Shown: positions 3,906 through 37,426, counted from the first letter of the stretch. The stretch: DNA of 39,210 nucleotides from a virus (IMGVR_UViG_3300048577_000336:1-39210), one strand, 5' to 3'. Notes: generated by a model from the sequence alone, not told the origin. Translations and numbers: made by a program.

Positions 3906-3916
3906 AGGGACATCGT

Positions 3917-4978: not shown

Positions 4979-5446
4979 ATGAATCGCACGCTTACCGACG
5001 CCTTTCCGCGCGAGCAACAGGCGTCGCTGCTCGGCTTCTTGCGGGACGGACCCATCGGCCCTCCGGGTCTGACCATCGCGGCGGCCGGCAGCCCGGCGGC
5101 CAAGGCTTCGGCTTTTGACTACCGCATCAACGGCAAAATCTACGCCAAGGCGGCCCAGGCCACCATTTCCCTGGTCACCCTCGGCGTGGTGGCCGCCGGG
5201 AAGACTTCGGCCGTCTTTCTGACCATTGACGCGGCCGGCAACGTCACCGTGTCGCCCGTGGTTCCCGACGAGTCGGGCGATATCGTCGTGCCCGATCCCG
5301 GTTATGGCCTGTGCCTGTTCGGCGCGGTCAAGGTGTCCAACGGCGCGGCCACGGCCTTCACGGGCGGCACCACGGCCTTGGACGCGGCCAGCGTCACGGC
5401 GACCTACTACAACCTGTCCGGCGTGATCCCCGGCGAAAGCCTGTAG
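4979..5446 (+). CDS. Putative capsid decoration/virion protein
   Basis: 155 aa, Ala/Thr/Val-rich beta character, FTGGTTALDA motif. Immediately after the capsid gene; GAGGAG RBS. Confidence 0.6.
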   Translation: MNRTLTDAFPREQQASLLGFLRDGPIGPPGLTIAAAGSPAAKASAFDYRINGKIYAKAAQATISLVTLGVVAAGKTSAVFLTIDAAGNVTVSPVVPDESGDIVVPDPGYGLCLFGAVKVSNGAATAFTGGTTALDAASVTATYYNLSGVIPGESL

Positions 5447-5455
5447 GGGGCGGCC

Positions 5456-5656
5456 ATGGAACGCACTCTCAACGATATCCTGTCCAGCGTCCATGATCCC
5501 GGCACGAAGATCGCCCTGCAAAAGGCGTTTCGGCTGGTCATCGATGCGGTCGAAAATCATGCGCACAAATGCGGCGGCGACGGCGTGGTGTCTTCGGTAG
5601 CCTGTACGGACCCGCCAGGCCATACCGCCACTACGCCGCTGGTCCTGCCCAAATAA
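5456..5656 (+). CDS. Hypothetical protein
   Basis: 66 aa, fills the gap exactly, GC3-biased codons, purine-rich upstream. Confidence 0.6.
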   Translation: MERTLNDILSSVHDPGTKIALQKAFRLVIDAVENHAHKCGGDGVVSSVACTDPPGHTATTPLVLPK

Positions 5657-5668
5657 GGAGCGGATGCT

Positions 5669-5992
5669 ATGGCCAAAAAGGAATCGCCCGTCGCGTCCGA
5701 GACGACGGGCCACCGGATCGTGATCGCCAGCGAGAAGACCAAAGAGGGCCGTCGGGCCGTTACGGGGTGCCATGCCGGCGTCAACTTTCAGATCCCTCGC
5801 GATACGGAATGCACCGTTTCCGAGGCGGTGCTGGAGATCCTGCGCAACGCCCAGGTGCCCGACGTCGAGGTGTTGGAAGACGGCGGCGTGGATATGCGCA
5901 TGGTGCAGCGTTTCCCGATCACGTACCTCGGCCCGGCGAACGAGGAAACGGCCGGCGCGGAGAACGTGGGGGCGGGTTTTGCTGCTCCCTGA
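5669..5992 (+). CDS. Hypothetical phage head-associated protein
   Basis: 107 aa with GVNFQIPRD..V.EAVLEILRNA...RFP pattern of the kind seen after N4-gp56 capsids. AAGGAG RBS. Confidence 0.7.
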   Translation: MAKKESPVASETTGHRIVIASEKTKEGRRAVTGCHAGVNFQIPRDTECTVSEAVLEILRNAQVPDVEVLEDGGVDMRMVQRFPITYLGPANEETAGAENVGAGFAAP

Positions 5993-6830
5993 CCTGCGCG
6001 AAGAGGCGCGGCGGCCGCTCCTGGATGCGTCCGTTGGTGACGATGAGCTGAATCGCTACGCTAACGAGGCGTTGCGGACGGCGGCCTTCCGGGTGTTCTT
6101 GCCCGATCTGGAGGCCGCCGCTGCCGTCGTCGTTCCGGCCGGGGCTTCGGTAGCCGCCTTGCCCGGCAATTTCCAGCGGGAGTTGTTCTGCGCTGCAGAC
6201 AGCGATGGCCGGCCGCTGGATGTCGTAACTTCGCGGTTTGATGGAGCCCGGTTGGACTCGGCCCATTTTCCGGTCGGCGGAATCCGGTTTGTGGCGGCCG
6301 TGGGCACCACTCAATTACGGGTTTGGCCCGCGCCCGAGGCGGAGACAACCATCATCCTTGGCTATTACCGGATGCCGCATACGTTGGAACAGGGCGCGGG
6401 CCGAGTGGCCTTTGCTTCCTCAGGATTACTGACGGCGGATGTCCCGCTGTTTGGTCGGTTCCAGCCCGGGGACGTGTTTACGGTTTTGGGCAGCGTCAGC
6501 AACGATGGCGAGCACGTCGTGGAGACTGCGTCGGCTTCTTCCTGCCGGGTGGTTGGCCCCCTGGTTGAAGAGGCGTCTGTGGCGGTCAATGTCGCGGCGG
6601 TCATCATTGAGGCCGTTCCGGAACATTTGCATCGGAATGTGCTGGTGAACGGCATCTTGGCCAGGGCCTTTGACTCCAGGGAAGACGCTTTCGAGGGAAA
6701 GAAAAACGCAAACTATTATAGAGCGATGGCCGAAGAGGCCATTCGCGAACTTAAGCGGGACATCAATGCCACGGGCTATCGGGCGCGCATTGCTGGCTCA
6801 AACGAGCTTCGCGGCAGGTCGCTGGTATGA
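5979..6830 (+). CDS. Head-tail adaptor protein (putative) with an inserted beta-domain
   Basis: Likely TTG start at 5979; the ORF-track N-terminal extension is a shadow of the previous gene. L.DLR..AR..L.D...DDELNRYANEA, LRVWPAP...GYYRMP and VPEHLHRNVLVNG.LARAF are adaptor-type motifs. Confidence 0.7.
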   Translation: MLLPDLREEARRPLLDASVGDDELNRYANEALRTAAFRVFLPDLEAAAAVVVPAGASVAALPGNFQRELFCAADSDGRPLDVVTSRFDGARLDSAHFPVGGIRFVAAVGTTQLRVWPAPEAETTIILGYYRMPHTLEQGAGRVAFASSGLLTADVPLFGRFQPGDVFTVLGSVSNDGEHVVETASASSCRVVGPLVEEASVAVNVAAVIIEAVPEHLHRNVLVNGILARAFDSREDAFEGKKNANYYRAMAEEAIRELKRDINATGYRARIAGSNELRGRSLV

Positions 6831-15974: not shown

Positions 15975-18900
15975 ATGGGCATCGACCTCGCCAGATACCG
16001 GGACGAAAATTCTGGGTACTACGGTGATGTCTCCCTGGCCGATGTAGCGGCCGATCTGCACGAGCGAAGCGGATCTGCCGCCGCTGGAGTGCCGCTCGAT
16101 CAATTCGCCAAGGAGAACGGTTTTGACGGGCAGCTTGCCGACGAGGTCCTGGCAAAAGGCGGCTTTGGGCTGTCGGAGTCCAAGCCCACGGTGGGCGATT
16201 ATGCCCGGTCGGTCGGAGTCGGCCTGGATCAGTTCGGCCAAGTGCTCGGGCGGAGTATGCAGTGGGTCGGCCTCGACCGTGCAGGGAAGGCTGTCGAGGA
16301 TCTGTATAAGCAGCGAGAAGCGGCCACCCGCAGTGAGCAGACCGACGCCTACAAGGCCGAAATGTCCAAATCCTTTCTTCGGGAGAGATCGGACGGCGGC
16401 GGTCTCTTTGGGTACGGCCTGGGGGAGGGGGCGACTTCTCCGACGAAGATTTTAGGTTCGATCATCGAAAGTGCGCCGTCTATGGCGGCTGCCGGCGGTC
16501 CGGGTATCGCGGCCACGAAGGGCTTGATCGGCCTTGGTCTACGTTCCGGCGTGGCTGGCATCGTCGGATCGGGGCTAGGAGAAGGAACCATCGGTGGCCT
16601 GTACGCGGCCAAAGAAGGTGAAGATCAGATTTTACAAGCTCCGGATGAAGTGTTGCGGCAACATCCGGACTATCAGAAGGCTTTTGCCGAACAGCCGGTG
16701 GACCTACCCGAAGAAGCGCGCCACGCGGCGGCCCGGGCTTCGGTGGCGCGCAGCGAGGCATTGCGCAGCGGCTTGCTCGTAGGCACGGCCACGGCCGCTC
16801 TTGGCGCGCCGTCCGGTCATTTCATGGGCAAATCCATCGGCGGTGAGACCGGCAAGACATTGGCCCGCACCATAGGCAAACAGGCTGTGCTGGAAGCCGG
16901 GCAGGAAGCCAGCCAGAACGCCGTCGAAAAGATCATCCACAACCAGGCCGCGCGGAAATATATCGATCCAAACACCAGCCTGTGGGAGGGAGTCGCCGAA
17001 GAAGCCATGGGCGGCGCAATCACCGGCGGCGTCATGGGCGGCGGCCTGGGCGGTTTTTCCCATAACAAATCGGCTCTGCGCTATCGGCAGGATTTTCAGG
17101 TCGAAGTGGGAAAGGCCTTGGCCGACGGCTCTGTGGCCGGCCTGTCTGACGCAGACCTGAGCGCGGCCTACCGCATTGCCGAAGGACAGCACGAGGAAAA
17201 TCCTGACGAGGCGGCCCGACAGGTTCTGCTTGGGCTCAATGCTGAGCAGCTCCGTCGCCAGGGCAAGGCGCGGGGCTTTCCGCTCAATGAGATTTTGGCC
17301 GAGGAAGTGGCGGCCCGGGCTGCTATGGGGCAGACGGGCGAGGCGGTTGCCGTACCCGAGGCGGATGTCGCGAATGAGCCGGCGACGCAGCTGGCCGGTC
17401 CGGATCGGGCAACGGAGCTGGCGAAGCTGTCTAAACGCCAGCTCAATGACCTGGCCAGCGGGTTGGGCATCAATACCCCGGGCCGGATCAAGCGTGACGC
17501 TTTGGTGGCATCCGTACTCCAGGCCGAGGAAGCGGCCCGTAAATGGAACGAACCGGATGCTGTGGAAGCCCGCTATCTGGAGGCCCACGCCGCGCCGTTC
17601 CCGGCCAGCCAGGATGATTTCCTCGGCCAGGCCGCGCCGGTTTCGCCCGAGGCCGCAGCGGAAGCGGCCGTCCAAGAATCTCTTCTGCAGGGGGGGGCTT
17701 CCGAGGGGGCCGTGCCTCCGGACAGGGCGGCCGAACTGGCCGACCTGTCCCATTCCGAGCTGCGCCGCATGGCCGCCTCGCTCGGCATCGAAAAGCCGGG
17801 GCGCATGCGCCGCGACGTCCTGGTGCCGGCCATTGTCGCGGCCGAGGAGCGAGCCCGTCAATTTTATGAGCCCGAGAATATTGAGGCTCGGTACCAGGAA
17901 GAGCACGCCGCGCCGTTCCCCGGCCAGCTGGATGACTTTTTGGACGGGGCCGCGCCCACGGGCCGGCGGGCGCGGCCCCGCAAGGTCGGTCCGGCCGCCA
18001 CGGAGACGGCTCTGGCGTCCCAGGCTGAACCCGGAACGGCGACGCCCAAACAGGTTTCCACGGCGTCCCCCACGGGCGAGATCCCGCTGGTCGAAGCCGG
18101 TTCAAAACCGGCCGCGCCCGAGTCGCAGCCCCCTTCCTCTGTCCCTCCGTCCCGTCCTGCCCTGGTGGAGCAGACGCCCGAAGGCGCGCTGCCGACCGGC
18201 GAGGTGCCTTTGGTGGAGGCCGGGCAAGAGATCGAAGCGGCAAACGGACAGCAGGGAAGGGCCCCCAACGTCGAGGCGCCTGTATACGAAGCGGCCAATT
18301 CCCTGAACGAAACGCCACCGGCGGTGCGGCCGGCCGAGGATTTGGCCGCCAAGTCCAAGCGGGAGCTGAACGCGCTGGCCGCCTCCCTCGGCGTGGAACG
18401 GCCCGGCGGTATCCGGCGCGAAGATCTGGTGGGCCGCATCGAACAGGCCCGACAGGAGCCGGCGGCCCAGGGGCAACCGGAAGCCTCTATCGGGCAGACG
18501 CCGGCAACGGCGCGGCCGCAGACGGAACAGGCCCGGCCGTGGATGCGGGAGGGCGGCAAAAAAGCCACGGTAGGGGCGCTGCTGCGCGCCGATGACCACA
18601 TGGTGGCGCGTAAGCCTGTCGAAGGCCAGGTGGTTCATTTCGAGATCCCAGGGCTTGAGGATGTGGGTTTCGTGGCCCACCACGACCTGAACGGCGGCAA
18701 GGGCTGGACCGTCACGGAAACACAGTCCGGAACCGCCGCCGTGATCGGAGCCGCGACCGAACAAGAGGCCTTGCGTGCCGTTTATGACCGGCTGGCCGGC
18801 TTTGACGCCGAGCGATTTCGCGCCAACCGCGACGATCTGGTCGCCCGGTTAGGGAGCGCTGAACAGACGACGCCAGCACAATCGGCCACCAAACCGCAGG

Positions 18901-21900
18901 AGCAGCCGACGCCCCCGACTATGGGAGGGTTTGCGTCTGGCGAGGAAGGGCCGCGTTACGCCATGAGCTTGCGGGAGACGCGCCATGCCAAACGAGGCCA
19001 CCCCCTCTATGTCGTGACCCTGGACGAGCGGACGTCGAGCGAGGCGTATGCGGGGCTCAAAAAAGAATTCGTCAAGCTCGGCGGCTACTGGTCGGGCTTT
19101 GCCCGCAACGGCGCAATCAAGGGCATCCAGTTCACGGACAAGGCCAAGGCCGAAGCCTTCCTGGAACGGTTCGGCAAAAAGTCGGCAGTGCAGGAGTCCT
19201 CCAGGGAAGGTGGGGCCGCGCCGGCCAGAGAGTCCCGCCCGTCGACTACTCCGGAGCAGTCCACCGCGAAGCCCCTTGGCGTCAACAGCGAGGGCAACCA
19301 AGTCTTCGAGGATGAACGCGGCAACCGCTCCGTGCGCGAGGGTGGAGTCCGCATCAAGGCCCCGGTTCCGGTCCGGCCGACCCGGGCCGGGGTGGTGGCC
19401 GAAGCGCATGGACCGGAGCAGCTTTACCGGGATGGGCACAGTGAGTTTCTGACCAAGGAGGAACTGGCCGCGTTCGAGCGCCCGGAGGCCTCGACACCGG
19501 CCGGCGAAGGCCTTATTTCCGAGAAGGAAGACCAAGGAGCGCGCGATGCAGGAAGTGCACACCCTGACCGATCCCGACCGGATGTGGGACTGGAAGGCCC
19601 ATCTGACGTGGCTCCTGGAGAACAAGCCCCAGGAGACGTGGGAGGACTTCCAGACGAATCCGGACGGCCTGAAAGAGGCCATCGACCGGAAGACGCTGCA
19701 GTCAGCCAACGTCCAGTACAAGCTCAAGAACAGCAAGGCTCCGGAGGACGCGATTCAGGAGGCGATGCTGGCGGTGGTCGCGCCGTCGGACGGCCCGGCC
19801 CTGAGCGCGGAGAATCCTCCCGAGCCCCTGCCCCGGCAAAAGGAAAGCCGGATATGGGCGTGGTGGGAGAACCTGCCGCCCCGAAAGATCACGGTCCTTC
19901 CAGACGGAACCTATCGAGAGACCATAACCACCGCATAGCCCCCGACGATGTGCTGGTGCCCGGCGGCAACGCCACCCGGGCCAAGGCCAACCTCGCCGCT
20001 GTCCGGCTCCTTAAGGAGTTGGAGGCGAAAAAACGTCTCCCCACGCCTCAGGAGCGCAAGGTCCTGGCCCAATTCTCGGGCTGGGGCTCCCTGGCCGAAG
20101 AGGTCTTCAAAAGGGATTTCGAGGACCTTGCCAACCGTTACGGCGGCGAGGTGCCGGCTAACCACCGCGTCCTCTTCCACCCGCCTCACCTGGAGAAGTA
20201 CGACGCCTGGCGGCGCAGGTACGGCGAACTCCATCCCAACATCGGCGGCCTGTTCTCCAAGGAGGAGTGGGACGCGGCCAAGCGTTCGACGCTCAATGCC
20301 CACTACACCGACCGGGACGTCGTCACGGCCATGTGGGATATGGTCCGGCAGCTAGGATTTGCCGGCGGCCAGGTGGTGGAACCGGCCGCCGGCATCGGCC
20401 ACTTCTTTGGCCTGATGCCCGAGGACCTGGCCGCCGCCTCCCACCTCAAGGGCGTAGAGCTGGATTCCATCACCGGCCGGTTGCTGGATAAACTCTATCC
20501 CGCCGCCGACATCCAAGTCACCGGATTCCAGGACGCCAAGCGCATGGGGAACAACACGGCGGACCTGGTCATCTCCAACGTCCCCTTCGGCGACTTCCCG
20601 ATCTACGACAAGGCGCACAAGGATTATTCCGGTTGGAGCATCCACAACTACTTCCTGGCCAGGGCCCTGGACGTGGTGCGGCCCGGCGGCCTGGTCGCGG
20701 CCATCACCTCGCACTACACCATGGATACGACTCGGTGGGGCAAGGTCCGGGAATACTTGGCCGGCAAGGCTGATCTGGTGGGCGCGATCCGCTTGCCTGG
20801 CACGGCCTTTTCCAAGAACGCCGGCACCGACGTCACGACCGACATCCTGATCCTGCGCAAAAAAGACGGACGCCCCTTTGAGGGCCAGCCCTGGCGGCAG
20901 GTGGAAAAGGTGGAGACGCCCGAGGGCCAGGCCGGAGTCAACGAATACTTCGTGACCCACCCGAAAATGGTGCTGGGCAGGCACTCCATGACCGGCTCCA
21001 TGCACGGCGGCCTCGAATACACCGTCCTGCCGGACAAGGCCCAGCCCCTGATCCAGCAGGTGCGGGAAGCCGTGGCACAGTTGCCTGTGGACATCCTGGG
21101 CCAAGGGCCGGCCAACCAGCCGAAGACCCTGCCTCAGGCCCTTGGCGAGCGGGCCGACGCGGACATGCGGGAGGGCACTCTTGTTATCCGGGATGGCGAC
21201 GTTTTTGCCGTAGAGGATGGACGGCTCGCGCGACCGGAATGGCAAGACGACAAGCTGGCTGCAACGCGATCGGCCATCGCCCGCAAGTATGTCGGCGTCA
21301 AGGCGGCTGCCCAGGGCTTGGTTCGGACCATGTTGTCCGCAGAAGCGACCGAAGCGGACGTCGTCGCGAAACAAAAGGAGCTTGGCCGGCTCTATGACGC
21401 CTTTGTCGAAGAACACGGCCCGTTCCTCGACAACCGGAAGCTGACGTTTCTTCGCGATGACGTCGAATACCCCAACGTCCTGGCCCTGGAAAAGAAGGAA
21501 GAACAGGTTGTCGACGGCGACAAGAAGGTCGTCGTCACCAAGGCCGACATCTTCACCAAACGGACCATCCGGCCCTTTGCCGAGCCCAGGACCGCCGCCT
21601 CGGCCGAGGACGCCGTCAAAATAAGCCTGCTCTACCGTGGGCATGTAGACGCCGCCAAAATCGGTGAGCTGCTCGGCCTCCCCGAGGCCGAGGCCAGGCG
21701 GAAGCTTGTGGAGACCGGCGCGGCCTATGAAAACCCGGAAACGGGGTTGCTCGAAACGCCGCAGGAATACCTGTCAGGCGACGTGCGCCAAAAGCTCCAG
21801 GTCGCCAGGGACAGCGCGGAAAGCAATCCGGATTACAAGCGCAACCTGGACGCCTTGGAGGCAGTGCAGCCGCCCAAAAAGCCCGTCAGCCGCATCGACG

Positions 21901-24900
21901 CCCGGCTGGGAGCGACTTGGATTCCCGATGGCGTGGTGTCCGCGTTCATGGAGCATATGGGCGTCCGTTGGGGCAGGGCAACCCAGACGCGCACCCGCGC
22001 CGGCGAGGACGGCATGTCCTCCTGGGACGTCAAGGGAACCCTGACGCAGGAGGCACAAAACCGTTGGACCGTGGGCGACACGGACCTTTTGGACATCCTC
22101 CAGGACTCGCTCAACCTCAAGCTGTCCAAGGCTTACAAATACCTGCCTGACGGCAACGGCGGCCGCAACCGCGTGGTCGACCAGGAAGGGACGCTTCTCG
22201 TCCAGGAAAAGCAAAAGGCCCTCCATGAGGAGTTCCTCAAATTTGCCCGCGAGACGCCCAAGGTCGCCACGGAGTTGGAGAACCTCTACGACGAGCGTTT
22301 CGGCGGGCAGATCCCCCGCCAGTACAACATTCCGGACGTGGCCCATTATCCGGGCGCGGTCGATACCATCACCCTGCGCGACCACCAAAAGCGCGGGGTT
22401 TCGCGTGGGCTCCAGGAAAACACGCTCTTCTCCCACGGGGTCGGGTCCGGCAAAACCTACCTCGTCACGACCCTGGCCATGGAGGCCCGGCGGCTTGGCA
22501 CGGCCAAAAAGCCGATGATCGTGGTCCAGGGGGCGACGTTGGAACAGTTCGCCAGCGCGTTCAAGCGGCTGTATCCGGCCGCCAACGTCCTGGCCCCCAA
22601 TGCCGAAGACCGGACCAAGGCCAACCGGCAGCGTCTGCTTTCCCAGATCGCCACGGGCGATTGGGACGCCGTGATCGTACCCCATTCCTTTTTCAACGGC
22701 TTGGCGATTTCCCCGGAGCGGGAAGCGGCCTTTATCGAAGAGGACCTGGACGCCCTGCGGGCGGATCTGCGCGAAGCCCAGGCCGACAAGAGCGAAGGGC
22801 GGGGCAAGAAATCCCCCCGGGTCAAGCAGATCGAAAAGATGATGCTCAAGCGCGAGGCGCGGCTCAAGGCCCTGCTCGACGCGCGCAAGGATGAGAACGT
22901 CTTTTTCGAGGACACGGGCGTGGACATGCTGGTGGTGGATGAGGCCCACGCCTACAAGCGCGGCGATTTCGTCACCAAGATGGACAATGTGAAGGGCCTG
23001 GACCGGGATTCCTCCCAGCGGTCCATGCAGCTTCTGTTGAAGTCCCGGTACATCGCCGAGAAGACCGGGGGCAAGAATGTCCACCTGGCCACGGGGACGC
23101 CGGTTTCCAATACCCTGGCCGAACTGTGGACCGCCCTGCGCTACATCCGCCCGGACCTCCTGGAGCGGTTCAACGTCACGCAGTTCGACGACTTCGCTTC
23201 GACCTTTTGCGCCACCAAGACCGACATCGAGGAGACGGCCACGGGCGACTACAAGCCCGTGACCCGGTTCAACCGCTACCAGAACCTGGGCGAACTCATC
23301 TCCATGTGGAAGGCCGGCGCGGACATCGTGCTGGCTGAAGACCTGGACTACATCAAGGACATTCCGAAGCTGAGAGGCGGCCGGCCCCAGGAAGTGTCCC
23401 TGGAGCGCAATCCGGAACTGACCGGCTACATTCAGCACCTCAAGCAGCGGCGGATGGAGTGGGAACATCTGACCGGCAAGGAGAAGCGGGAGCAGTCCCA
23501 TGTGCCGCTTCTCATCTACAACCTCGCCCAAAAGGCCGCCCTGGACATGCGGCTGGTCAACCCGGAGCTGGGTGAGGCTCCGGGAGGCAAGATCGACGCG
23601 GCGGCCGAGGAGATTTTCAAGCGGTATCAGGACCACCAGGACACCCGGGCGGCCCAGGCGGTTTTCAGCGACATCTACCAGTCGTCGGACAAGACCTTCA
23701 ATGTTTGGAAGGACCTCAAGCAAAAGCTTGTGGCCAAGGGCATTCCGGCCAGAGAAATCGCCATCATCTACGATTTCAACGAGAAGGCACGGGAAAAGCT
23801 TTTTGAGGCGGTCAATGCCGGCGATGTGCGGGTGGTGATGGGGTCCACGGAAAAGCTCGGCGTGGGCGTCAACATCCAGGAGCGTCTGGCCGCCCTGCAC
23901 CACCTGTCCCCACCGGTCCGGCCCATGGATTGGGAGCAGCGCAATGGCCGCATCCGCCGCCAGGGCAACATGTTCGGGGAAGTTGAGGTCCTGGCCTACG
24001 GCGTGAAAAACACGCTCGACTCGGTCAGCTTCAACATCCTGCAGAACAAACAGAAGTTCATCAACCAACTCCTTCGCGGCGAGATCGACGGCGACGTGAT
24101 GGAGAACCCTTTTGACGACGTCCAGCTCTCCTTCGAGGATATGATGGCGGCCTTTTCCGGCAACCCGCTGGCCATGGAGCGGGTGAAGCTTGAGGGGCAG
24201 GTGCGGGACCTGGGTCGGCTGCGCCAAGCCTTTCAGGACGAAAAGGCCGGCCGCATTCGCCAGCTCGACCTTTTGCGCGAGAGCCGGATACCGGCCATCG
24301 AAAAGAGCCTGGCCGCAGCCGAAAAGGAAGTGGATCGGCTGCGGCGCTCTTTCCCGGACTTCAAGGCGGAAACCTTTACGCTCAAGGACGGCACGTTCGA
24401 GAAGAAGGATTTCACCAGGAAGCTCACGGATTGGTACGATGGGCTCAAGGGCCGCCTGGAAAAGGAGACCGTGGGCAAGACCGTGGCCCACTATGAAGGG
24501 GTGCGGAGCGGCGGTAAATTCGGCGGCGCGGTTACCTTCGAGACCGGCGGCCATGAAGTCGAGATCAAGGTTCGTCCCGTATCCGCCGGCCTGGTCGGCG
24601 TGGACTCTAACCGGGGAGACGGTCTGGCCATGGTCACCGAGGCCACCTTGACCGGTGCCTTCACTGTCACGACCAAAAACGGGGAAGTCCTTTTCGAGCG
24701 TAATTTCGGCGCGCCCTCCGGATTTATCCGCTCCTTTAACAACGGCCTTGAGGAGCTTTCCCGGGAGCCCGAACGCATCAAGGGCCAGCTCGATCGGGCT
24801 CGGGAGTCGGCCGCGTCCCTGGAACGGCTTGTGGAGGAGAAGTTCACCAGAGAGGATGAATACTCCCAGGTGTCCGGTCGGTTGCGGGAAGTCGAGGAGG

Positions 24901-27900
24901 AACTGAAAAAGGCCAAGAACGAGGACTTGGCCGCTGTGGCGCAGGCGGCGGAGACCGCCGGGGAAGACGACGGCGGTCCGGCTGCCCGGCTGTCCCGGGC
25001 CGAGGCCAGCGCCGCCAATGCCGCACCCATCGCCAGGGCCGTAGCCGGGGAACTGCGCAAAGGAATTGCGCAGTTTCCGGCGCTTCGCGGCATCGTGGAC
25101 ATTTACCATGCCGAGTCCGATCTGCCGGCGGATCTGCGGCGCGAAGTCGAGGATGCGGGCGTTTCGGGGCGGTTCTACGGGGCCTATAACCCCGAAACCA
25201 AGCGCATCGCGCTTGTAGCCGGGAATATCCCCACGGAAAAGGCCGGGCAAGTCGCGTTCGTTCAAACGTTGCTGCGCCACGAGGGCCGGCACGGCGGGCT
25301 CGACCTGGTGCTCGGGGGCCGGGAGGCGCGGCAGGAGTACATGACCCGGGCCGCGCATGCCATGCCGCGCCAGGTTTCCCTGTGGCTGGAACGCCAAGGC
25401 CTCGACTCCACGCGCGCGACCCGGGCCGAAGCGGCCGAGGAAATACTCGTTTCCTGGGCCAAGGACGGCACAGTTCACCGGGTGTTGGACCGTCTGCTGG
25501 CCAAAATGGCCGAGTGGGTCCGTTCCATTTTCCCGAGTCTGAAGCTGACCAAGGCTGAGCTGCGCCAGATCCTGGCGTTGGCCGATGACTTCGTGGACGG
25601 CAAGGGGCTGGATTTCGTCGCGCCAGTCGGCTCGTCGTTCGTCGCCGCGCCGGCCTTCGCCCGCGAGGAGACGCGGTTTGCCCGGGCCGGCGAGCTGGCC
25701 GGCGTGCCAGTGGAAAAAGAAGAGGTGGCGACCTGGTTCAAGGGCGAGGTCACGGCCCATGTCCGTTCCTTTCTGCCAACCCTGCGCGGGACACTCAAGG
25801 AAACCGCAGTGCTTGGCAAAATCCTGCGGTCGCCGGAATATTGGAAACATCCGGTCCTCAAGCGGCTCTACGAGATTTTCCGTGACAGGACGGACCAAGC
25901 CCACGAGTTGCTGCATGCTGCCTTTGACCTGGGCGATGGCCGCACCATCGTCGAGTCGGCCAAGGAAGTCTTCAAGGATAAGAAGCAGCGGGAGATACTG
26001 AATCAAGGCGTGGACTACGCCGACGTGAACGAGATCAAACCCGAGGAAATGGAGGCCTGGTTCCGGGAACATGGCGCGACTGAAGCGACCATCGGCCTTT
26101 GGCGCTCGATGCGGGACGGCTACGACATGCTTCTCGATGCACGGCTGAAATCCTACCGCGCGCTGGTGGACAAGGCCCGGGACAGTTACGGCCGTAAAAT
26201 CGTCCGGCGTTTGGTTGAAGCCGGCGTTCCGGCCAAGGAGGCCCAGTCGTTCGATGCGAAGGCCTACCATGCTGACAGGACCCTTTCGGATGCGTTGGCG
26301 CCCTATTCCCAGCAGGTGGCCGAAGTGGTGTCCACGGCACGCAAGGCCGGCATCACCATCCAGGGCCAGCTAGCTGATGTGCGGTTGTCCGGCGAGGACG
26401 GCACATCGTTTTCGCTCAAGGAGCTTATCGAGCGCATGGGGCAACTTCGTGGCTCCTATGCGCCCCGTTTGCGCGAAACCGGAGAGTATGTGGTGCGGGG
26501 CCAGCGAATGGCCCCGAACGGCAAACTGGAGCGTTTCCGCGCGCACAAGGAGTGGCGCTCCGGGGCCGAATCACTGCGGGCGAAGATGGCTCGGGCTGGT
26601 TGGGACATGGAACCGGTCGGACGGATCGAGAAATTGCCCGAGGCCACGCAGGGAATCATCAAAGCCTTGGAGCTGGCCAAGACCGTGGAAAGCGCCGTCA
26701 ACCAGGTCGGCGAGGACGTGGACGCCGGTCTTGTCGGCGAACTCTTGGAGACGCTGGCCGACGAGGTTAAGGCACGGGGGTTTAGGGCACAGTCCATCCG
26801 GCGCACGGGTCGCCACGGCGACGTGGTGCAAGGTTATTTTGTAGATGCCCTGGAGCGGTACACCCGGTACGCCGGGGCCACGGCCTACGGCCTGGCCAAG
26901 ATGGAAGCGGCGGGAAAGGCCTCCAAGGCTCTTTTCGGCCAGGACGGCGCTACAGGCATCGACATCCAGAAGGAACGCGACGTCTATCGGCTGGCCGTGG
27001 ATTATCTTGCGGAAAACCTGCGTAACGCCGAGGCGGGGGACCGGGTCTTCAGCCTAGCCAAGTCGGTGGCCAGCCTGAAATACTTGGGGCTCAATCCGCG
27101 TTCGGCCCTGGTCAACCTTTCTTCCATGGCCACTTCCGTGCCTGCGGCGCTCCACGCCTACGCCCTGGAGGGCAAGGGCGGCTGGGCCAAGATCGGTCGG
27201 GAGACGGCCCGGGCCATGGCCGACTATCTGGGCGTGATGACCGGCAAGTGGGGCTCCTTCACGGCGGACGAAAAGCGGTTCTTGGAGGGCATCCGCAAAG
27301 AGTCCCTGGACGATCCGCAGTTTGCCCGTGAGGCCCTGTCCACCTATCGCGATACGGCCGGAACAAGCTGGTCCTGGCTCATGGGCAAGACCTTGGCCCT
27401 TTTCGGGGCGACCGAGCAGCTCAACCGGGGTTCGACGCTTCTGGCCGCCTACCGGCTGGCCCGTTCGGCCGGAGCGGACCACGAGGCGGCCACGGCCAGG
27501 GCGCGGGAGACGTCCGACCGGGCGCACGGCGTCTACGACCGGGCGACCCAGCCCGCCTGGACCTGGGGCACGTCGGCCGGGTCCAGACTCGGCCAGAGTT
27601 GGTACGTCTACAAAAAGTACGGCCACAACTACCTCCAGCTCGTCCATGAGCTGTTCCAGAAAAAAGACTGGCAGGCGGCCACGTTCGCCCTGGCCGCGCC
27701 GATGGCGCTTGGCGGCTTGGGAAGCCAGGTGCTGACGTCCATCGTTAAGGCGTTGTTTGTAGCCGGCGGTTCCGATGATGATCCGGAAAAATGGCTCTAT
27801 GACTTCATTCGACGCAACATGGGCGACCAAGGAGAGGAATTGGCTCGGTTCGGCCTGCTTGGGCTCGTGACCGGCACCGACATGTCCGGCTCCCTTGGCA

Positions 27901-28826
27901 CCATGATCGACACGCCGGACAGCGTAACCGACGTGCTCGGCCCCATGGGCGGCTTGGCCCGGGATGTGCTGGCCGGCATCGGCTTTTTCGCGGCCGGCCA
28001 GCCGGGACGGGGCGCGGAAAAAATCCTGCCGACCGGCCTGTCCAAGATTCTGCAAGCCGCGCGCGAATCCTCCCAGGGCGTGTCCACCTCGAAGAACTTT
28101 CCCGTTGTGGGGCCGGACGGCAAGCGGTTGATGCCGACAGCCGGGGAGTCCGCGGCCAAGGCGCTCGGCTTCCGCCCGGCGCGTGAAGCCACGGCCCGGG
28201 CCCGGACCTCGGAGGCCATCGAGGAGGAAAAGCGGTGGTCCGAAAAGCGGGACAAGATCTACTCGCGATTCCGGGCGTTCACGCTGGCCGGCGGGAATGA
28301 CGCCGATGAGCGGCAGGCCCTGGTCGCGGCCGTGGCCGGCTACAACAAAGACGTGGCTGATGCTGGCCTTTCCGGACGCGTGACCTACATCACCCGCGAA
28401 TCGCTCCTGCACCAGACAGAAAGGTTGGCCCGGCCGACGAAACGCGAACAGGCGCGGCTTGGCGATAAATCTGGAATGACCAAACCCTATGCGTCGGTTT
28501 CCGGAGAAGACATCGAGGACCTTTCCCATCCCTACTACGCCGTGCGCAGGAATTATACCGAGATGAAGGAGCGTTATGACGCCCTTCGTCAAGCCGGGGA
28601 CCTGGAAGGCGCGGCGACTCTGCGCGGTGAAGTCCGATTACCGCTCCTGCGCAGGCTGATCGGTCGTGTCTCTTCCGTGCGTGAGGAGATGGGCAAGGTA
28701 CGTGAAAGCCGTCTGGCGGACGATGTGAAGTCACGTCGTATGGATGCATTGCGGGAGCGGGAACGGCTGGAAATGGACAGGGCCGCGCGCATGGCGTCGG
28801 GGATACAGACGCCCAAAGGGGAGTGA
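15975..28826 (+). CDS. Giant DarB-like polyvalent virion protein: Rho-N-like repeats, N6-adenine MTase, SNF2-type helicase, HExxH metallopeptidase, PLxRFG-like C-terminus
   Basis: 4283 aa. MTase: ANLAAVRLLK..FSGWG, NAHYT, EPAAGIG (20379), NVPF (20577). Helicase: HGVGSGKT (22434), DEAH (22938), ATGTP, QRNGRIRRQGN (23937). Peptidase: HEGRH (25278). C-terminal region: YAPRLRETGEYVV and ALGFRP. Confidence 0.88.
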   Translation: MGIDLARYRDENSGYYGDVSLADVAADLHERSGSAAAGVPLDQFAKENGFDGQLADEVLAKGGFGLSESKPTVGDYARSVGVGLDQFGQVLGRSMQWVGLDRAGKAVEDLYKQREAATRSEQTDAYKAEMSKSFLRERSDGGGLFGYGLGEGATSPTKILGSIIESAPSMAAAGGPGIAATKGLIGLGLRSGVAGIVGSGLGEGTIGGLYAAKEGEDQILQAPDEVLRQHPDYQKAFAEQPVDLPEEARHAAARASVARSEALRSGLLVGTATAALGAPSGHFMGKSIGGETGKTLARTIGKQAVLEAGQEASQNAVEKIIHNQAARKYIDPNTSLWEGVAEEAMGGAITGGVMGGGLGGFSHNKSALRYRQDFQVEVGKALADGSVAGLSDADLSAAYRIAEGQHEENPDEAARQVLLGLNAEQLRRQGKARGFPLNEILAEEVAARAAMGQTGEAVAVPEADVANEPATQLAGPDRATELAKLSKRQLNDLASGLGINTPGRIKRDALVASVLQAEEAARKWNEPDAVEARYLEAHAAPFPASQDDFLGQAAPVSPEAAAEAAVQESLLQGGASEGAVPPDRAAELADLSHSELRRMAASLGIEKPGRMRRDVLVPAIVAAEERARQFYEPENIEARYQEEHAAPFPGQLDDFLDGAAPTGRRARPRKVGPAATETALASQAEPGTATPKQVSTASPTGEIPLVEAGSKPAAPESQPPSSVPPSRPALVEQTPEGALPTGEVPLVEAGQEIEAANGQQGRAPNVEAPVYEAANSLNETPPAVRPAEDLAAKSKRELNALAASLGVERPGGIRREDLVGRIEQARQEPAAQGQPEASIGQTPATARPQTEQARPWMREGGKKATVGALLRADDHMVARKPVEGQVVHFEIPGLEDVGFVAHHDLNGGKGWTVTETQSGTAAVIGAATEQEALRAVYDRLAGFDAERFRANRDDLVARLGSAEQTTPAQSATKPQEQPTPPTMGGFASGEEGPRYAMSLRETRHAKRGHPLYVVTLDERTSSEAYAGLKKEFVKLGGYWSGFARNGAIKGIQFTDKAKAEAFLERFGKKSAVQESSREGGAAPARESRPSTTPEQSTAKPLGVNSEGNQVFEDERGNRSVREGGVRIKAPVPVRPTRAGVVAEAHGPEQLYRDGHSEFLTKEELAAFERPEASTPAGEGLISEKEDQGARDAGSAHPDRSRPDVGLEGPSDVAPGEQAPGDVGGLPDESGRPERGHRPEDAAVSQRPVQAQEQQGSGGRDSGGDAGGGRAVGRPGPERGESSRAPAPAKGKPDMGVVGEPAAPKDHGPSRRNLSRDHNHRIAPDDVLVPGGNATRAKANLAAVRLLKELEAKKRLPTPQERKVLAQFSGWGSLAEEVFKRDFEDLANRYGGEVPANHRVLFHPPHLEKYDAWRRRYGELHPNIGGLFSKEEWDAAKRSTLNAHYTDRDVVTAMWDMVRQLGFAGGQVVEPAAGIGHFFGLMPEDLAAASHLKGVELDSITGRLLDKLYPAADIQVTGFQDAKRMGNNTADLVISNVPFGDFPIYDKAHKDYSGWSIHNYFLARALDVVRPGGLVAAITSHYTMDTTRWGKVREYLAGKADLVGAIRLPGTAFSKNAGTDVTTDILILRKKDGRPFEGQPWRQVEKVETPEGQAGVNEYFVTHPKMVLGRHSMTGSMHGGLEYTVLPDKAQPLIQQVREAVAQLPVDILGQGPANQPKTLPQALGERADADMREGTLVIRDGDVFAVEDGRLARPEWQDDKLAATRSAIARKYVGVKAAAQGLVRTMLSAEATEADVVAKQKELGRLYDAFVEEHGPFLDNRKLTFLRDDVEYPNVLALEKKEEQVVDGDKKVVVTKADIFTKRTIRPFAEPRTAASAEDAVKISLLYRGHVDAAKIGELLGLPEAEARRKLVETGAAYENPETGLLETPQEYLSGDVRQKLQVARDSAESNPDYKRNLDALEAVQPPKKPVSRIDARLGATWIPDGVVSAFMEHMGVRWGRATQTRTRAGEDGMSSWDVKGTLTQEAQNRWTVGDTDLLDILQDSLNLKLSKAYKYLPDGNGGRNRVVDQEGTLLVQEKQKALHEEFLKFARETPKVATELENLYDERFGGQIPRQYNIPDVAHYPGAVDTITLRDHQKRGVSRGLQENTLFSHGVGSGKTYLVTTLAMEARRLGTAKKPMIVVQGATLEQFASAFKRLYPAANVLAPNAEDRTKANRQRLLSQIATGDWDAVIVPHSFFNGLAISPEREAAFIEEDLDALRADLREAQADKSEGRGKKSPRVKQIEKMMLKREARLKALLDARKDENVFFEDTGVDMLVVDEAHAYKRGDFVTKMDNVKGLDRDSSQRSMQLLLKSRYIAEKTGGKNVHLATGTPVSNTLAELWTALRYIRPDLLERFNVTQFDDFASTFCATKTDIEETATGDYKPVTRFNRYQNLGELISMWKAGADIVLAEDLDYIKDIPKLRGGRPQEVSLERNPELTGYIQHLKQRRMEWEHLTGKEKREQSHVPLLIYNLAQKAALDMRLVNPELGEAPGGKIDAAAEEIFKRYQDHQDTRAAQAVFSDIYQSSDKTFNVWKDLKQKLVAKGIPAREIAIIYDFNEKAREKLFEAVNAGDVRVVMGSTEKLGVGVNIQERLAALHHLSPPVRPMDWEQRNGRIRRQGNMFGEVEVLAYGVKNTLDSVSFNILQNKQKFINQLLRGEIDGDVMENPFDDVQLSFEDMMAAFSGNPLAMERVKLEGQVRDLGRLRQAFQDEKAGRIRQLDLLRESRIPAIEKSLAAAEKEVDRLRRSFPDFKAETFTLKDGTFEKKDFTRKLTDWYDGLKGRLEKETVGKTVAHYEGVRSGGKFGGAVTFETGGHEVEIKVRPVSAGLVGVDSNRGDGLAMVTEATLTGAFTVTTKNGEVLFERNFGAPSGFIRSFNNGLEELSREPERIKGQLDRARESAASLERLVEEKFTREDEYSQVSGRLREVEEELKKAKNEDLAAVAQAAETAGEDDGGPAARLSRAEASAANAAPIARAVAGELRKGIAQFPALRGIVDIYHAESDLPADLRREVEDAGVSGRFYGAYNPETKRIALVAGNIPTEKAGQVAFVQTLLRHEGRHGGLDLVLGGREARQEYMTRAAHAMPRQVSLWLERQGLDSTRATRAEAAEEILVSWAKDGTVHRVLDRLLAKMAEWVRSIFPSLKLTKAELRQILALADDFVDGKGLDFVAPVGSSFVAAPAFAREETRFARAGELAGVPVEKEEVATWFKGEVTAHVRSFLPTLRGTLKETAVLGKILRSPEYWKHPVLKRLYEIFRDRTDQAHELLHAAFDLGDGRTIVESAKEVFKDKKQREILNQGVDYADVNEIKPEEMEAWFREHGATEATIGLWRSMRDGYDMLLDARLKSYRALVDKARDSYGRKIVRRLVEAGVPAKEAQSFDAKAYHADRTLSDALAPYSQQVAEVVSTARKAGITIQGQLADVRLSGEDGTSFSLKELIERMGQLRGSYAPRLRETGEYVVRGQRMAPNGKLERFRAHKEWRSGAESLRAKMARAGWDMEPVGRIEKLPEATQGIIKALELAKTVESAVNQVGEDVDAGLVGELLETLADEVKARGFRAQSIRRTGRHGDVVQGYFVDALERYTRYAGATAYGLAKMEAAGKASKALFGQDGATGIDIQKERDVYRLAVDYLAENLRNAEAGDRVFSLAKSVASLKYLGLNPRSALVNLSSMATSVPAALHAYALEGKGGWAKIGRETARAMADYLGVMTGKWGSFTADEKRFLEGIRKESLDDPQFAREALSTYRDTAGTSWSWLMGKTLALFGATEQLNRGSTLLAAYRLARSAGADHEAATARARETSDRAHGVYDRATQPAWTWGTSAGSRLGQSWYVYKKYGHNYLQLVHELFQKKDWQAATFALAAPMALGGLGSQVLTSIVKALFVAGGSDDDPEKWLYDFIRRNMGDQGEELARFGLLGLVTGTDMSGSLGTMIDTPDSVTDVLGPMGGLARDVLAGIGFFAAGQPGRGAEKILPTGLSKILQAARESSQGVSTSKNFPVVGPDGKRLMPTAGESAAKALGFRPAREATARARTSEAIEEEKRWSEKRDKIYSRFRAFTLAGGNDADERQALVAAVAGYNKDVADAGLSGRVTYITRESLLHQTERLARPTKREQARLGDKSGMTKPYASVSGEDIEDLSHPYYAVRRNYTEMKERYDALRQAGDLEGAATLRGEVRLPLLRRLIGRVSSVREEMGKVRESRLADDVKSRRMDALRERERLEMDRAARMASGIQTPKGE
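17400..17957 (+). repeat. Two 80-codon internal repeats (17400-17639, 17718-17957), each with a Rho-N/HeH-like motif; partial third copy ~18336-18446
   Basis: PDRATELAKLSKRQLNDLASGLGI...HAAPFPASQDDFLGQAAP versus PDRAAELADLSHSELRRMAASLGI...HAAPFPGQLDDFLDGAAP. Third copy EDLAAKSKRELNALAASLGVERPGGIRREDLV. Confidence 0.85.
19546..19938 (+). CDS. Nested gene overprinted in the +1 frame of the giant ORF (130 aa; weak resemblance to TnpV/DUF1896-like helical proteins)
   Basis: AAGGAG at 19534-19539, 6 nt before ATG. 45 of the first 50 codons end in G/C, versus 18 of 50 for the host frame over the same bases. Globular composition, while the host frame here is G/R/P/D low-complexity. Confidence 0.75.
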   Translation: MQEVHTLTDPDRMWDWKAHLTWLLENKPQETWEDFQTNPDGLKEAIDRKTLQSANVQYKLKNSKAPEDAIQEAMLAVVAPSDGPALSAENPPEPLPRQKESRIWAWWENLPPRKITVLPDGTYRETITTA

Positions 28827-33349: not shown

Positions 33350-34102
33350 TTAATGTTTGTGCAGAAGCAGGGCGTGGAGTTCCATAATAGTGAGCCATGG
33401 TTTTTTAGCGTGTATTATGCGATGGCAATTAGCGCAGACAAGAGCTAGGTCTTTTGTCGAAGTTTTTGTGCCAGGCATAAGGCTCATAAGTGGTTTTGTG
33501 TGATGTACTTCGATGCAGCTATTGCCACGTTCGCCATACATATATTCAAAGTTAAAGCCACAGCCTTCGCATTCTAATTTGCCTTTATTTTTTAAAACGG
33601 AAGCTTTTTTTTTAGCGACAAGTTTTCGAGACCTCTCTCTAACCATATGTTGCCGCGCTAAAATCTGCCCTTCGTCAGCTTCAAAAAAATTTTCCATGTC
33701 TTGGAATAATTCGTTTGAGTTTTTATCGCCGAGTTCAATGTTTGCGGCTATTGTCGAAGAAATGCGTTGAAGTTCTTCTCTTCGATTAGCGTATTTTTGC
33801 CACACAATCTCTTCGTCGTGACTGCCTTGTTTTAATCCAAGTTTACCTTGGACAATAAAGTCTGGGTCAAACCGACGAAAATTCATCAATTTCATGTAAA
33901 CGCCTGCAGGATTTCGAAATGTATCGTTGTGTTTGCCTAGTAAGTCACCCAATTTGTTTAAGAGTAAAGAGAGATCTAGGATTTCTGGATCGTTCTTCCT
34001 TGGTGCTGTCCCTCTGTGCTTCATGTAGAGATTTAGAGCAAGAATGAGTTCGTCACGAGACCAGGTAGGGTTCTTGAGTGTTTTTTTAAAATTATTTTGC
34101 AT
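33350..34102 (-). CDS. HNH endonuclease (McrA-like)
   Basis: WSRDELILAL...VYMKLMNF N-terminal domain, then EG...RERS...CEGCGFNF...IEVHH..P...VCANCHRIIH. AT-rich. Confidence 0.88.
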   Translation of the reverse strand: MQNNFKKTLKNPTWSRDELILALNLYMKHRGTAPRKNDPEILDLSLLLNKLGDLLGKHNDTFRNPAGVYMKLMNFRRFDPDFIVQGKLGLKQGSHDEEIVWQKYANRREELQRISSTIAANIELGDKNSNELFQDMENFFEADEGQILARQHMVRERSRKLVAKKKASVLKNKGKLECEGCGFNFEYMYGERGNSCIEVHHTKPLMSLMPGTKTSTKDLALVCANCHRIIHAKKPWLTIMELHALLLHKH

Positions 34103-34171
34103 GTCGTATATGTGTGGTTATTCTTTGAAGTTAAATTTAATGATTCAAGAAGAAAGCAAGGTGAAGCACAC

Positions 34172-35185
34172 CTAACGGCCTTGACTTTCCAGGGGCAGAA
34201 GGTCCCAGAATATCGGTTCACGGTCCATCAGCATCTGAGCAGATAGGCACTCCACAACGGAAAGATCAGAGCGAAATCGCACTTCGCTGACGCCGTCTGG
34301 TAAATTACTGCGGATAGCTGGTAATTCTGCGAGATCAAAGAATTTGAGTGATGATTCCGCGAGCTTTGCATCGAAGGTCACTTCTAGGGCTTCATTGAGA
34401 CTTGAGCCCAACGTGGATGCCGTAACCTCGTGTAGCTTAAAAACAAGATCCGGGTTGGAGGCAACATCTGAAGCGATCCCGGCAATTATTTTGCGCATGC
34501 TTAAGCCGTTTGATACGCGCTCTGCGAACAGTGAAGCTGCGACGGCGATGGTGCCAGGTGGCGGATTGCATTGCTCGTAGGAGAAGACGTGCGAACGCTG
34601 GCGTTTGCTAGTTGCTTTTACATCAAGTCTGACGTCACCATCGACAAAATCAAAACGGGCGGTCTCGTCCGCACGCCAAGCGGACAGTGTCCTGATGGGG
34701 TTTGAACTGCGAAAGATCAGAAACAATTCCCCGAATAGACCTTGAACGGTCCGGGTAGGCGGTTTTTGAGCTTTCTGAAAAATCGAGGCGAGCCGGTGCA
34801 CGGCGAGTGATACGGTCGCCTGGTCCGGCTCATCACCCGCCATGCGCAGAACTGTTTCGCATACTGAAAGGAAGTAGCGAATGGTTTCTGTGTCGTGGGC
34901 GCGGCAGCGAATGACGGTGAAGTATCCTTCCTTCCGAACCTGCCCCCAGGTCAGGTGGCAAGGCAAATCAAATTGAACATCGATGCTTTCAAGACGGATT
35001 GGCGATGGCTGGCGTCGTTTCTGGTTAATCGTTGCGACTAGAAGGCAAGCACGCTCCTCGTTATCTTTGCCGACGTAGTAGCTCTGATAGCCGAGAACCG
35101 GCAACACCGCGTAGAGCGGCTTGTTTGCATTGGTAACGACAGGAGCGACAATCGTCTCAAATAATGTTTCAAGCGAACCAGTCAT
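34172..35185 (-). CDS. PD-(D/E)XK motif protein (DUF4420-like)
   Basis: QGLFGEL...W.....FDF......DVKAT...R.H.FS.EQ pattern. Directly downstream of the Z1 gene. Confidence 0.82.
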   Translation of the reverse strand: MTGSLETLFETIVAPVVTNANKPLYAVLPVLGYQSYYVGKDNEERACLLVATINQKRRQPSPIRLESIDVQFDLPCHLTWGQVRKEGYFTVIRCRAHDTETIRYFLSVCETVLRMAGDEPDQATVSLAVHRLASIFQKAQKPPTRTVQGLFGELFLIFRSSNPIRTLSAWRADETARFDFVDGDVRLDVKATSKRQRSHVFSYEQCNPPPGTIAVAASLFAERVSNGLSMRKIIAGIASDVASNPDLVFKLHEVTASTLGSSLNEALEVTFDAKLAESSLKFFDLAELPAIRSNLPDGVSEVRFRSDLSVVECLSAQMLMDREPIFWDLLPLESQGR

Positions 35186-35193
35186 CCGTCGCC

Positions 35194-37410: not shown

Positions 37411-37426
37411 ACTGGCGTTCTCCCGG

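Follow-up and report, generated by a model that had tools for sequence, protein, structure and literature searches.

Does the giant DarB-like gene of a phage harbour a second, complete gene in another reading frame, and, if so, what might the product of this second gene do? Long same-strand nested genes are thought to be rare in bacteria and phages. The DNA analyzed here, hereafter called the window, is a virus record of 39,210 bases, in which the portal, major head, and head-closure genes precede a giant gene of 4283 codons.

An open reading frame nested in a giant virion gene

The giant gene, the nested ORF, and the adjacent domains have the following positions:

15975..28826, plus strand: giant DarB-like virion gene, 4283 aa (Pfam and PHROG matches; downstream of the portal and major head genes)
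19534..19539, plus strand: AAGGAG, ribosome-binding site of the nested gene, separated by 6 nt from its ATG and invariant in the close relatives L001 and L002
19545..19940, plus strand: linker in the frame of the giant (host frame), aa 1191-1322, low-complexity, poorly conserved, and stop-free (composition, alignments)
19546..19938, plus strand: nested gene for a 130-aa helical TnpV-like protein, +1 frame relative to the giant, ATG to TAG
19938..20372, plus strand: LPD36-like helical domain, GWGS motif at aa 1369 (motif position; definition from PMC5512222, section 14)
20373..20867, plus strand: N6-adenine methyltransferase core, aa 1467-1631, with EPAAGIG and NVPF (Pfam, motifs)
22368..23198, plus strand: first lobe of the SNF2-type helicase, GSGKT at aa 2157 and DEAH at aa 2322 (Pfam, motifs)

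The giant consists of an ejection-protein-like N-terminal part with Rho_N-like repeats, a linker, an LPD36-methyltransferase (MTase) block, an SNF2-type helicase, and a long C-terminal part. Pfam matches were obtained for Rho_N, N6_Mtase (below the cut-off), ResIII, and SNF2, and the methylase-helicase part matched the DarB-like family phrog_10089 with 1399 bits. Two hallmarks of the methylase-helicase dyad were found, namely the LPD36 motif GXG[GAS] ahead of the MTase (GWGS, aa 1369), and an NPP(Y/F)-type MTase followed by an SF2/SNF2 helicase, with NVPF at aa 1535 as a variant. The giant is thus predicted to be a DarB-like protein encoded in a virion module, which may be packaged and may protect DNA from type I restriction. 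According to the accessible text of PMC9144972, a homologue of the giant was detected in the virions of phage JC1.

An ORF at 19546-19938 in the +1 frame, preceded by AAGGAG, had been predicted, and both were found at exactly these positions. The reported difference in GC content at third codon positions (GC3), 45/50 in the nested frame versus 18/50 in the host frame, was reproduced for the first 50 nested codons. Over the whole nested ORF, GC3 is 0.84 in its own frame and 0.44 in the host frame (a codon flip of 0.40), and the overall GC3 of the giant is 0.78. This flip is the strongest among all 24 ORFs of at least 60 aa that start inside the giant in the +1 or +2 frame, the runner-up having a value of 0.17, and the lowest host GC3 of the entire giant (17-21/50 in 50-codon windows) also lies over the nested ORF, followed by 25/50 near position 16575. 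The host linker is rich in Gly, Pro, Arg, Ala, Asp, and Ser, and Phe, Trp, Tyr, and Cys are all absent from it. Positions 19546-19938 are hereby confirmed as a real dual-coding locus, which encodes the linker of the giant as well as a 130-aa protein one base out of step. The small gene had been described as overprinted; nesting was confirmed, but the direction is best reversed, since the small gene has the ancestral-looking codon pattern and the giant linker is the frame of low constraint.

It had also been proposed that the nested stop codon marks the beginning of the MTase region. This is valid for the start of the LPD36-MTase block, but not for the catalytic domain, because the GWGS motif follows 47 codons downstream of the stop and the Pfam N6_Mtase match begins only at aa 1467.

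Conservation and selection on both frames

Independent gene calls in public assemblies include four proteins with 88-93% identity to the nested protein. When 1.84 billion representatives were searched with a profile, 60 matches were obtained at E<=0.001, mostly of 100-130 aa, which correspond to about 60 relatives at the 50%-identity level. Stop codons breaking the +1 frame in close homologues had been named as evidence against the nested gene, but none were seen: the two close phage contigs L001 and L002 preserve the Shine-Dalgarno (SD) motif, the start, the stop, and both frames. In three close relatives, the synonymous changes switch frames: they are found in the host frame where they lie in the flanks, and in the +1 frame where they lie within the overlap. 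For example, in the overlap of L029 the +1 frame has 35 synonymous and 30 nonsynonymous changes and the host frame 7 and 62, whereas in the downstream flank the host frame has 66 and 46 and the +1 frame 12 and 103. The frame-specific analysis that had been suggested thus revealed purifying selection on the +1 frame in the overlap, in close relatives. When the window was compared with 119 other nested loci, using alignments optimized separately for each frame, z exceeded 4 in 24 cases for the nested protein and in 4 cases for the host peptide.

Selection on the host frame became apparent at the third positions of the nested codons. If AA, AG, or GA follows a nested codon, a T at the third position of this codon would create a stop in the host frame; at such sites T was found in 0/2460 cases, compared to 835/5767 (14.5%) elsewhere. 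In single-coding controls, the respective T rates were 0.21 and 0.25. Moreover, only 71/992 control windows of the same length were open in the host-equivalent frame, and the nested family matches had not been selected for an open host frame. The lack of stop-making T and the small number of open control windows, together with the absence of a host start with an SD motif downstream of the nested stop in the window, indicate that host read-through is under selection. An SD motif of at least 5 nt precedes 89/120 nested starts, compared to 66/541 control +1 ORFs picked in the same way. Judged from these substitution and codon patterns, both frames of the overlap are under selection.

Family and fold of the nested protein

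The nested protein of the window has no Pfam and no PHROG match, and it fails the curated cut-off of TnpV (PF14198; 27 bits). However, 6 of the 56 members of its alignment matched TnpV weakly (best E 0.015), and HHalign of the window family versus TnpV resulted in a probability of 91.7% (E 7.7e-7, 51 columns; reversed control 0.2%). An iterated HMM connects the window family with the TnpV set. TnpV matches far above the cut-off were obtained for the nested proteins of the Clostridia loci (7/7 scanned); one phage nested protein also exceeded the cut-off, 14 more of the 46 scanned matched weakly, and the product of a free gene situated downstream of an SNF2 gene in Streptococcus was likewise above it. 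By profile comparison, the nested protein is a remote TnpV relative below the Pfam cut-off. The assignment to a TnpV- or DUF1896-like type in the original prediction was therefore borne out for TnpV and weakly for DUF1896 (PF08989), for which HHalign gave 11.3% and a Pfam match is absent.

AlphaFold2 (AF2), supplied with the 56-sequence alignment, generated a helical model with a pLDDT of 92.7 and a pTM of 0.86. Among 48,161 chains, the top structural match was 2APL (PG0816; Z 5.4, rmsd 2.1 A over 62 residues; next Z 4.3), which we take to be a DUF1896 structure; the Foldseek E value of this match is 4.0, and common helical arrangements can also reach a Z of this size. Foldseek gave no match at E<=0.001 in PDB or BFVD, PDB sequence searches returned nothing meaningful but designed repeat proteins, and all ESM Atlas matches were below 0.9. 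Homology to the small P1 protein Ulx was considered and rejected (HHalign 0.05% versus an alignment of two Ulx sequences only).

Recurrence in phages, plasmids, and ICE-like loci

To survey the layout, loci were chosen purely by similarity of the MTase region. The 80 top-ranking loci were taken from 218 viral matches, and another 80 top-ranking ones from 361 genome matches. To these were added 2 earlier viral loci, P1, and 17 of the 95 records from a phage collection, comprising 13 cultured phages chosen for diversity and 4 others. An HMM built from the 56-sequence alignment was run over 18,554 six-frame ORFs of 181 sources; it matched 50 loci in the first round and 135 after four rounds, with no match on the minus strand. 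Thus, 135 of the 180 loci with an MTase match contained a family match, and 131 of these are nested in the +1 frame of a methylase-helicase ORF, the remainder being 2 in-frame cases and 2 separate ORFs downstream. The two in-frame fusions (L135 and L160) were considered as Rosetta-stone evidence and rejected, each being a single-base insertion relative to close relatives. The 131 nested loci represent 120 distinct proteins, 118 of which have enough upstream DNA and form 45 clusters at 50%; the locus counts are not independent, because several loci are from the same contig or from near-identical phages.

Among the 45 loci lacking a family match, 24 contain a codon-flipped +1 ORF (flip of at least 0.25) at the MTase boundary. 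At least three other conserved groups of small proteins without a family HMM match occupy the nested slot (L017, L081, L088, L097, L099, and L101; L048, L052, L054, L055, L057, L062, and L098; L045-L047 and L049), and these would be either divergent members or replacements. The small gene is absent in about 21/180 loci, and it is lacking in P1 and PHB04. In two loci it is damaged while the host frame is intact: in L176 (1930-2238) a stop codon interrupts the nested gene, and in L182 (about 3640-3950) it has decayed. Could the nested ORF then be the unexpressed remnant of a gene that was once captured, or could it arise as a side effect of the host frame? A few broken or decayed copies would fit, but the nested frame is intact in 130/131 nested loci, and the purifying selection on the +1 frame in close relatives, the enrichment of SD motifs, and the confident AF2 fold make this explanation extremely improbable.

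All 13 cultured phages have a +1 ORF at the MTase boundary, 9 of them with an HMM match. As had been anticipated for annotation pipelines, none of the 13 records annotates the nested ORF as a gene of its own. In the record of PBC5 (L013, NC_003324.1 22144-28115), the giant contains frame breaks, which are probably sequencing errors; the annotated upstream CDS, gp22, terminates in the nested frame, and no annotation covers the MTase stretch. The record of Itty13 (L018) places hypothetical CDSs of the opposite strand across the DarB-like gene. In L005, two tandem nested +1 ORFs (5438-5626 and 5660-6004), both codon-flipped, lie ahead of the MTase. Vibrio phage VvAW1 (L011, 1014-1748) has three more codon-flipped +1 ORFs upstream of the family member, which may reflect merely an acidic host sequence. 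A metagenome scan with alignment A2 returned one already-known contig and L008, which turned out to be spurious. Taken at the level of sequence comparison, the nested layout is kept over hundreds of mobile elements in many bacterial phyla.

A probable internal promoter and RNA-library contigs

Upstream and downstream of the nested gene, the following elements were noted:

19491..19519, plus strand: candidate sigma70-type promoter, TCGACA-17 nt-TATTTC, with 26 nt between the end of the -10 box and the nested ATG (by eye)
19539..20391, no strand assigned: stretch of RNA-library contigs covering the entire nested ORF (single contigs, three metatranscriptome runs, two studies)
20384..20410, plus strand: weak terminator-like hairpin near the ends of the RNA contigs (5 sites in 2 kb, 1.9 expected)

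The candidate promoter is weak in the window, reads TATTTT in L028, and is near-consensus in several relatives. The -10 box of the window lacks the last T, 19/266 windows of the giant gene score equally well, and a strict sigma70 scan of 18500-20500 found no promoter. The relatives were more informative. In the 118 upstream regions, strict -35/-10 pairs with a spacer of 17 occurred in 10, compared to 0.3 expected per spacer from coding controls; spacers of 16 or 18 were found in 5, and all remaining spacers from 8 to 27 also in 5. With one locus per cluster, a spacer-17 pair was present in 6/45 versus 0.2 expected, and just 12/45 clusters had a strict promoter site within 15-60 nt. Seven Clostridia loci have TTGACG-17-TAYGAT in common, 238-256 nt upstream. 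The spacer statistics suggest that the nested gene probably has a sigma70-like promoter of its own in a subset of the relatives.

In the metatranscriptome runs X3 and X4, the longest contigs among those listed on a 14-kb stretch cover 19543-20391 and 19539-20313, respectively. They start 13-17 nt past the predicted start, and the point where they begin is crossed by the DNA-type runs X1 and X2. A contig of run X20, from a diverged strain and the second study, covers 19544-20315 and does not share this 5' end, because it extends 311 unlike bases further upstream. The runs X17-X19 are probably DNA and gave short pieces only. X3 and X4 come from one study, parts of the giant left uncovered in the RNA runs were not counted as silence, and because the contigs carry no information about strand, start, or level and all runs were found with a stretch of the window as query, we treat the RNA contigs as a weak hint.

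Origin of the nesting

The original prediction derived the nesting from an ancestral two-gene unit that had been fused by read-through to a virion ejection protein. The first part of this proposal was supported, since in Bacteroidetes 5/8 DUF1896 copies directly precede a methylase gene and such a two-gene unit does exist. The second part was not supported. The methylase-helicases of plasmids and ICE-like elements show the same +1 nesting and have no virion part, and the phage fusion therefore did not create it; moreover, in all 4 Bacteroidetes pairs read, DUF1896 has its own start and overlaps the methylase in the opposite phase. The simplest inference is that the phage giants would have acquired a cassette that was already nested. 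A FastTree tree of 53 MTase rows, comprising about half of alignment A8 and every far-nested row, was rooted at the midpoint and built without a support test; it groups the short-host and far-nested loci among the phage giants and gives no order of events.

Plasmids show the nested layout in 5/8 and lack the small gene in 3/8 of those examined, which are 8 of 921 matching records; four of the five calls were made by HMM (one weak, E 0.02), and one by likeness to the weak one. A gene for a conjugative coupling protein lies upstream in 4/8 of the short-host loci checked. Among the loci listed, those of the Acidobacteria type have some 25-95 methylase-helicase codons before the nested start, through which the host frame is read. 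In the Clostridia loci, the nested gene is found 1.4-3 kb upstream, and YodL, ArdC-N, or LPD domains are encoded in the vicinity.

These positions bear on a further possibility, namely that the nested ORF is an internal operon leader and that ribosomes stopping at 19938 re-initiate in the host frame, which would yield a shorter, cytoplasmic methylase-helicase and make the small protein itself less important. In the majority of the phage and Acidobacteria loci, the nested stop coincides with the LPD36 boundary, which agrees with this possibility, as do the overlap of Bacteroidetes DUF1896 with the methylase start and the GTG codons at 19950 and 19956. However, neither GTG is preceded by an SD motif, and many relatives among the loci listed have no host start in the interval from the nested stop to the GWG motif. 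Together with the distance in Clostridia, the end of the RNA contigs near 20313-20391, and a conservation of the small protein that far exceeds the needs of a leader, this renders a leader function highly unlikely.

A QLSLF or QL(S/T)(L/M)F-like motif recurs at the N-termini of the short methylase-helicases (L123-L185, L196, L199, and L202, among the loci listed), and in the Clostridia loci it directly follows the nested stop. The motif resembles the sliding-clamp-binding motif, which suggests that short methylase-helicases may dock on the host clamp.

Proposed function and alternatives

We tentatively favor, at somewhat less than even probability, a model in which the small protein, expressed separately, would act as a partner and would bind and restrain the methylase-helicase in the cell carrying the element. 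The internal promoter would transcribe the nested gene independently of the late giant gene, and its own ribosome-binding site would drive translation. The small protein would then bind the methylase-helicase and keep this translocating enzyme, which methylates DNA, inactive or in solution as long as it is in a lysogen, producer, or donor. The enzyme would later be ejected or transferred into the new cell without the small protein. Nesting would keep the enzyme and its partner linked as the cassette joins different N-terminal parts. The fixed place of the small gene ahead of the LPD36-MTase block in phages, plasmids, and ICE-like loci is consistent with a partner, and P1 DarB, with its small dedicated neighbor Ulx, offers an analogy; against it are the many methylase-helicases that lack an intact small gene, i.e., the three plasmids, P1, PHB04, and the other loci mentioned above.

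A more general version of the partner model, which we consider doubtful, would apply to the DarB-like methylase-helicases of many phyla, whether encoded by phages, plasmids, or conjugative elements. Each would bear its own inhibitor as a complete hidden transcription unit within its coding sequence, composed of a promoter, a ribosome-binding site, and a gene of the TnpV superfamily. The antidote would stay behind and the enzyme would be injected. Such a unit might explain TnpV and DUF1896, including free tnpV genes, which would shield mobilizable elements from a helper enzyme or tame it.

TnpV is also found beside relaxases on mobilizable elements, in 16/24 MOBQ2 IMEs, with no methylase-helicase named in the accessible text of PMC12084326. 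Thus, a role on DNA or in transfer fits as well. The nested protein could be a factor for excision, mobilization, or regulation, as has been postulated for TnpV of Tn4451, and the linker would simply be a free place that is always co-inherited. An Xis-like role of TnpV, postulated in the accessible part of PMC3158075, the neighboring relaxases, and an own promoter would all be compatible with this reading. We nevertheless judge it unlikely, because the window protein is acidic (21 D+E versus 15 K+R), the structure searches gave no prominent DNA-binding fold, and the small gene keeps its place beside the methylase-helicase in phages, plasmids, and ICE-like loci that differ in their mobility machinery.

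A small dedicated neighbor is known for DarB of P1, where Ulx aids DarB localization, as listed in a table of PMC9024508. By analogy, the nested protein might be a loading or folding chaperone, which would assist the entry of the giant into the capsid, or that of the ICE enzyme into the secretion system, and might itself be carried along. This functional precedent, the fixed linkage to a class of packaged or transferred proteins, and the coupling-protein genes flanking half of the short-host loci checked speak for a chaperone. Against it are the lack of Ulx homology noted above, and the consideration that a factor needed only when the late gene is on requires no housekeeping-type promoter. The nested protein is also missing from the JC1 virion table, as far as the available text goes, but, being unannotated, it was probably outside the search. 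A chaperone role therefore appears improbable to a similar degree as a DNA or mobility factor.

Comparison with known systems

The true TnpV members (PF14198; Tn4451/Tn4453-type elements, Firmicutes ICEs, and IMEs) are nested in the methylase-helicase genes of Clostridia in the same manner as the window gene (7/7 loci). In contrast, tnpV appears solely as a free gene in the accessible texts of PMC3158075 and PMC12084326, where a role in excision or transfer is postulated. The Tn4451-type context of a mobilizable element with recombinase and relaxase also differs from that of the window gene, which lies in a phage virion module. DUF1896 shares the position directly before the same kind of methylase (the five of eight copies), but is a separate gene that overlaps the methylase start in the opposite phase.

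DarB of P1 and the methylase-helicase dyad of polyvalent proteins (Iyer et al. 2017, PMC5512222) have the LPD36-MTase-SNF2 order, the virion context, and the DarB-like PHROG in common with the giant, but in P1 a nested family match is lacking and ulx follows darB. The main text of PMC5512222 contains 0 occurrences of TnpV, DUF1896, or overlapping gene; its supplement may bear on the point. Ulx might be a functional analogue of the nested protein, as both are small proteins whose genes are tied to a DarB gene; ulx, however, is a separate gene downstream of darB, whereas the window gene is nested upstream of the MTase.

Rz1, nested in Rz of phage lambda, is an embedded gene, and the two products are partners. 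Like Rz1, the window gene lies wholly inside another gene on the same strand in a shifted frame; it has its own ribosome-binding site, and both frames are selected. The differences are that Rz1 is short and Pro-rich, whereas in the window it is the nested product that is folded and conserved, and the host stretch is a linker, and that the window layout recurs in many phyla, in phages as well as in plasmids and ICE-like loci. An Rz1 embedded in Rz is present in JC1 (accessible text of PMC9144972).

In the literature searched, chiefly openly accessible main texts, no description of a gene nested in a DarB-like gene was found, and the accessible texts of PMC9144972, PMC9024508, PMC11437467, PMC3158075, PMC12084326, PMC13639185, PMC9815147, PMC12810830, and PMC5512222 do not describe one. 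The parts are known, but the arrangement was not found in print.

The nested gene sits unannotated in well-studied cultured phages, and deleting or truncating such giant genes would remove two genes together. In plasmids, annotation chooses one frame: it retains the small gene in some cases and the large gene in full in others, and it often truncates the enzyme. TnpV, and perhaps DUF1896, both of unknown function, gain a concrete candidate partner, which bears on the control of a large DNA methylase-helicase ahead of its delivery.

Further observations in the window

The Rho_N-like repeats are located at 17400-18460 (giant aa about 480-830), in the N-terminal part of the giant. A 62-aa +1 ORF at 16594-16782 (plus strand), preceded by AAGGA and with a mild codon flip of 0.17, is possibly a second, weak nested gene; the host GC3 also dips there. 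At 33350-38956 on the minus strand, opposite in orientation to the phage genes, a cassette of four genes encodes a HATPase, a Z1 domain protein, a DUF4420 PD-(D/E)XK protein, and an HNH protein. From its gene content, it looks like a restriction-type defence cassette, either of the phage or of flanking host DNA.
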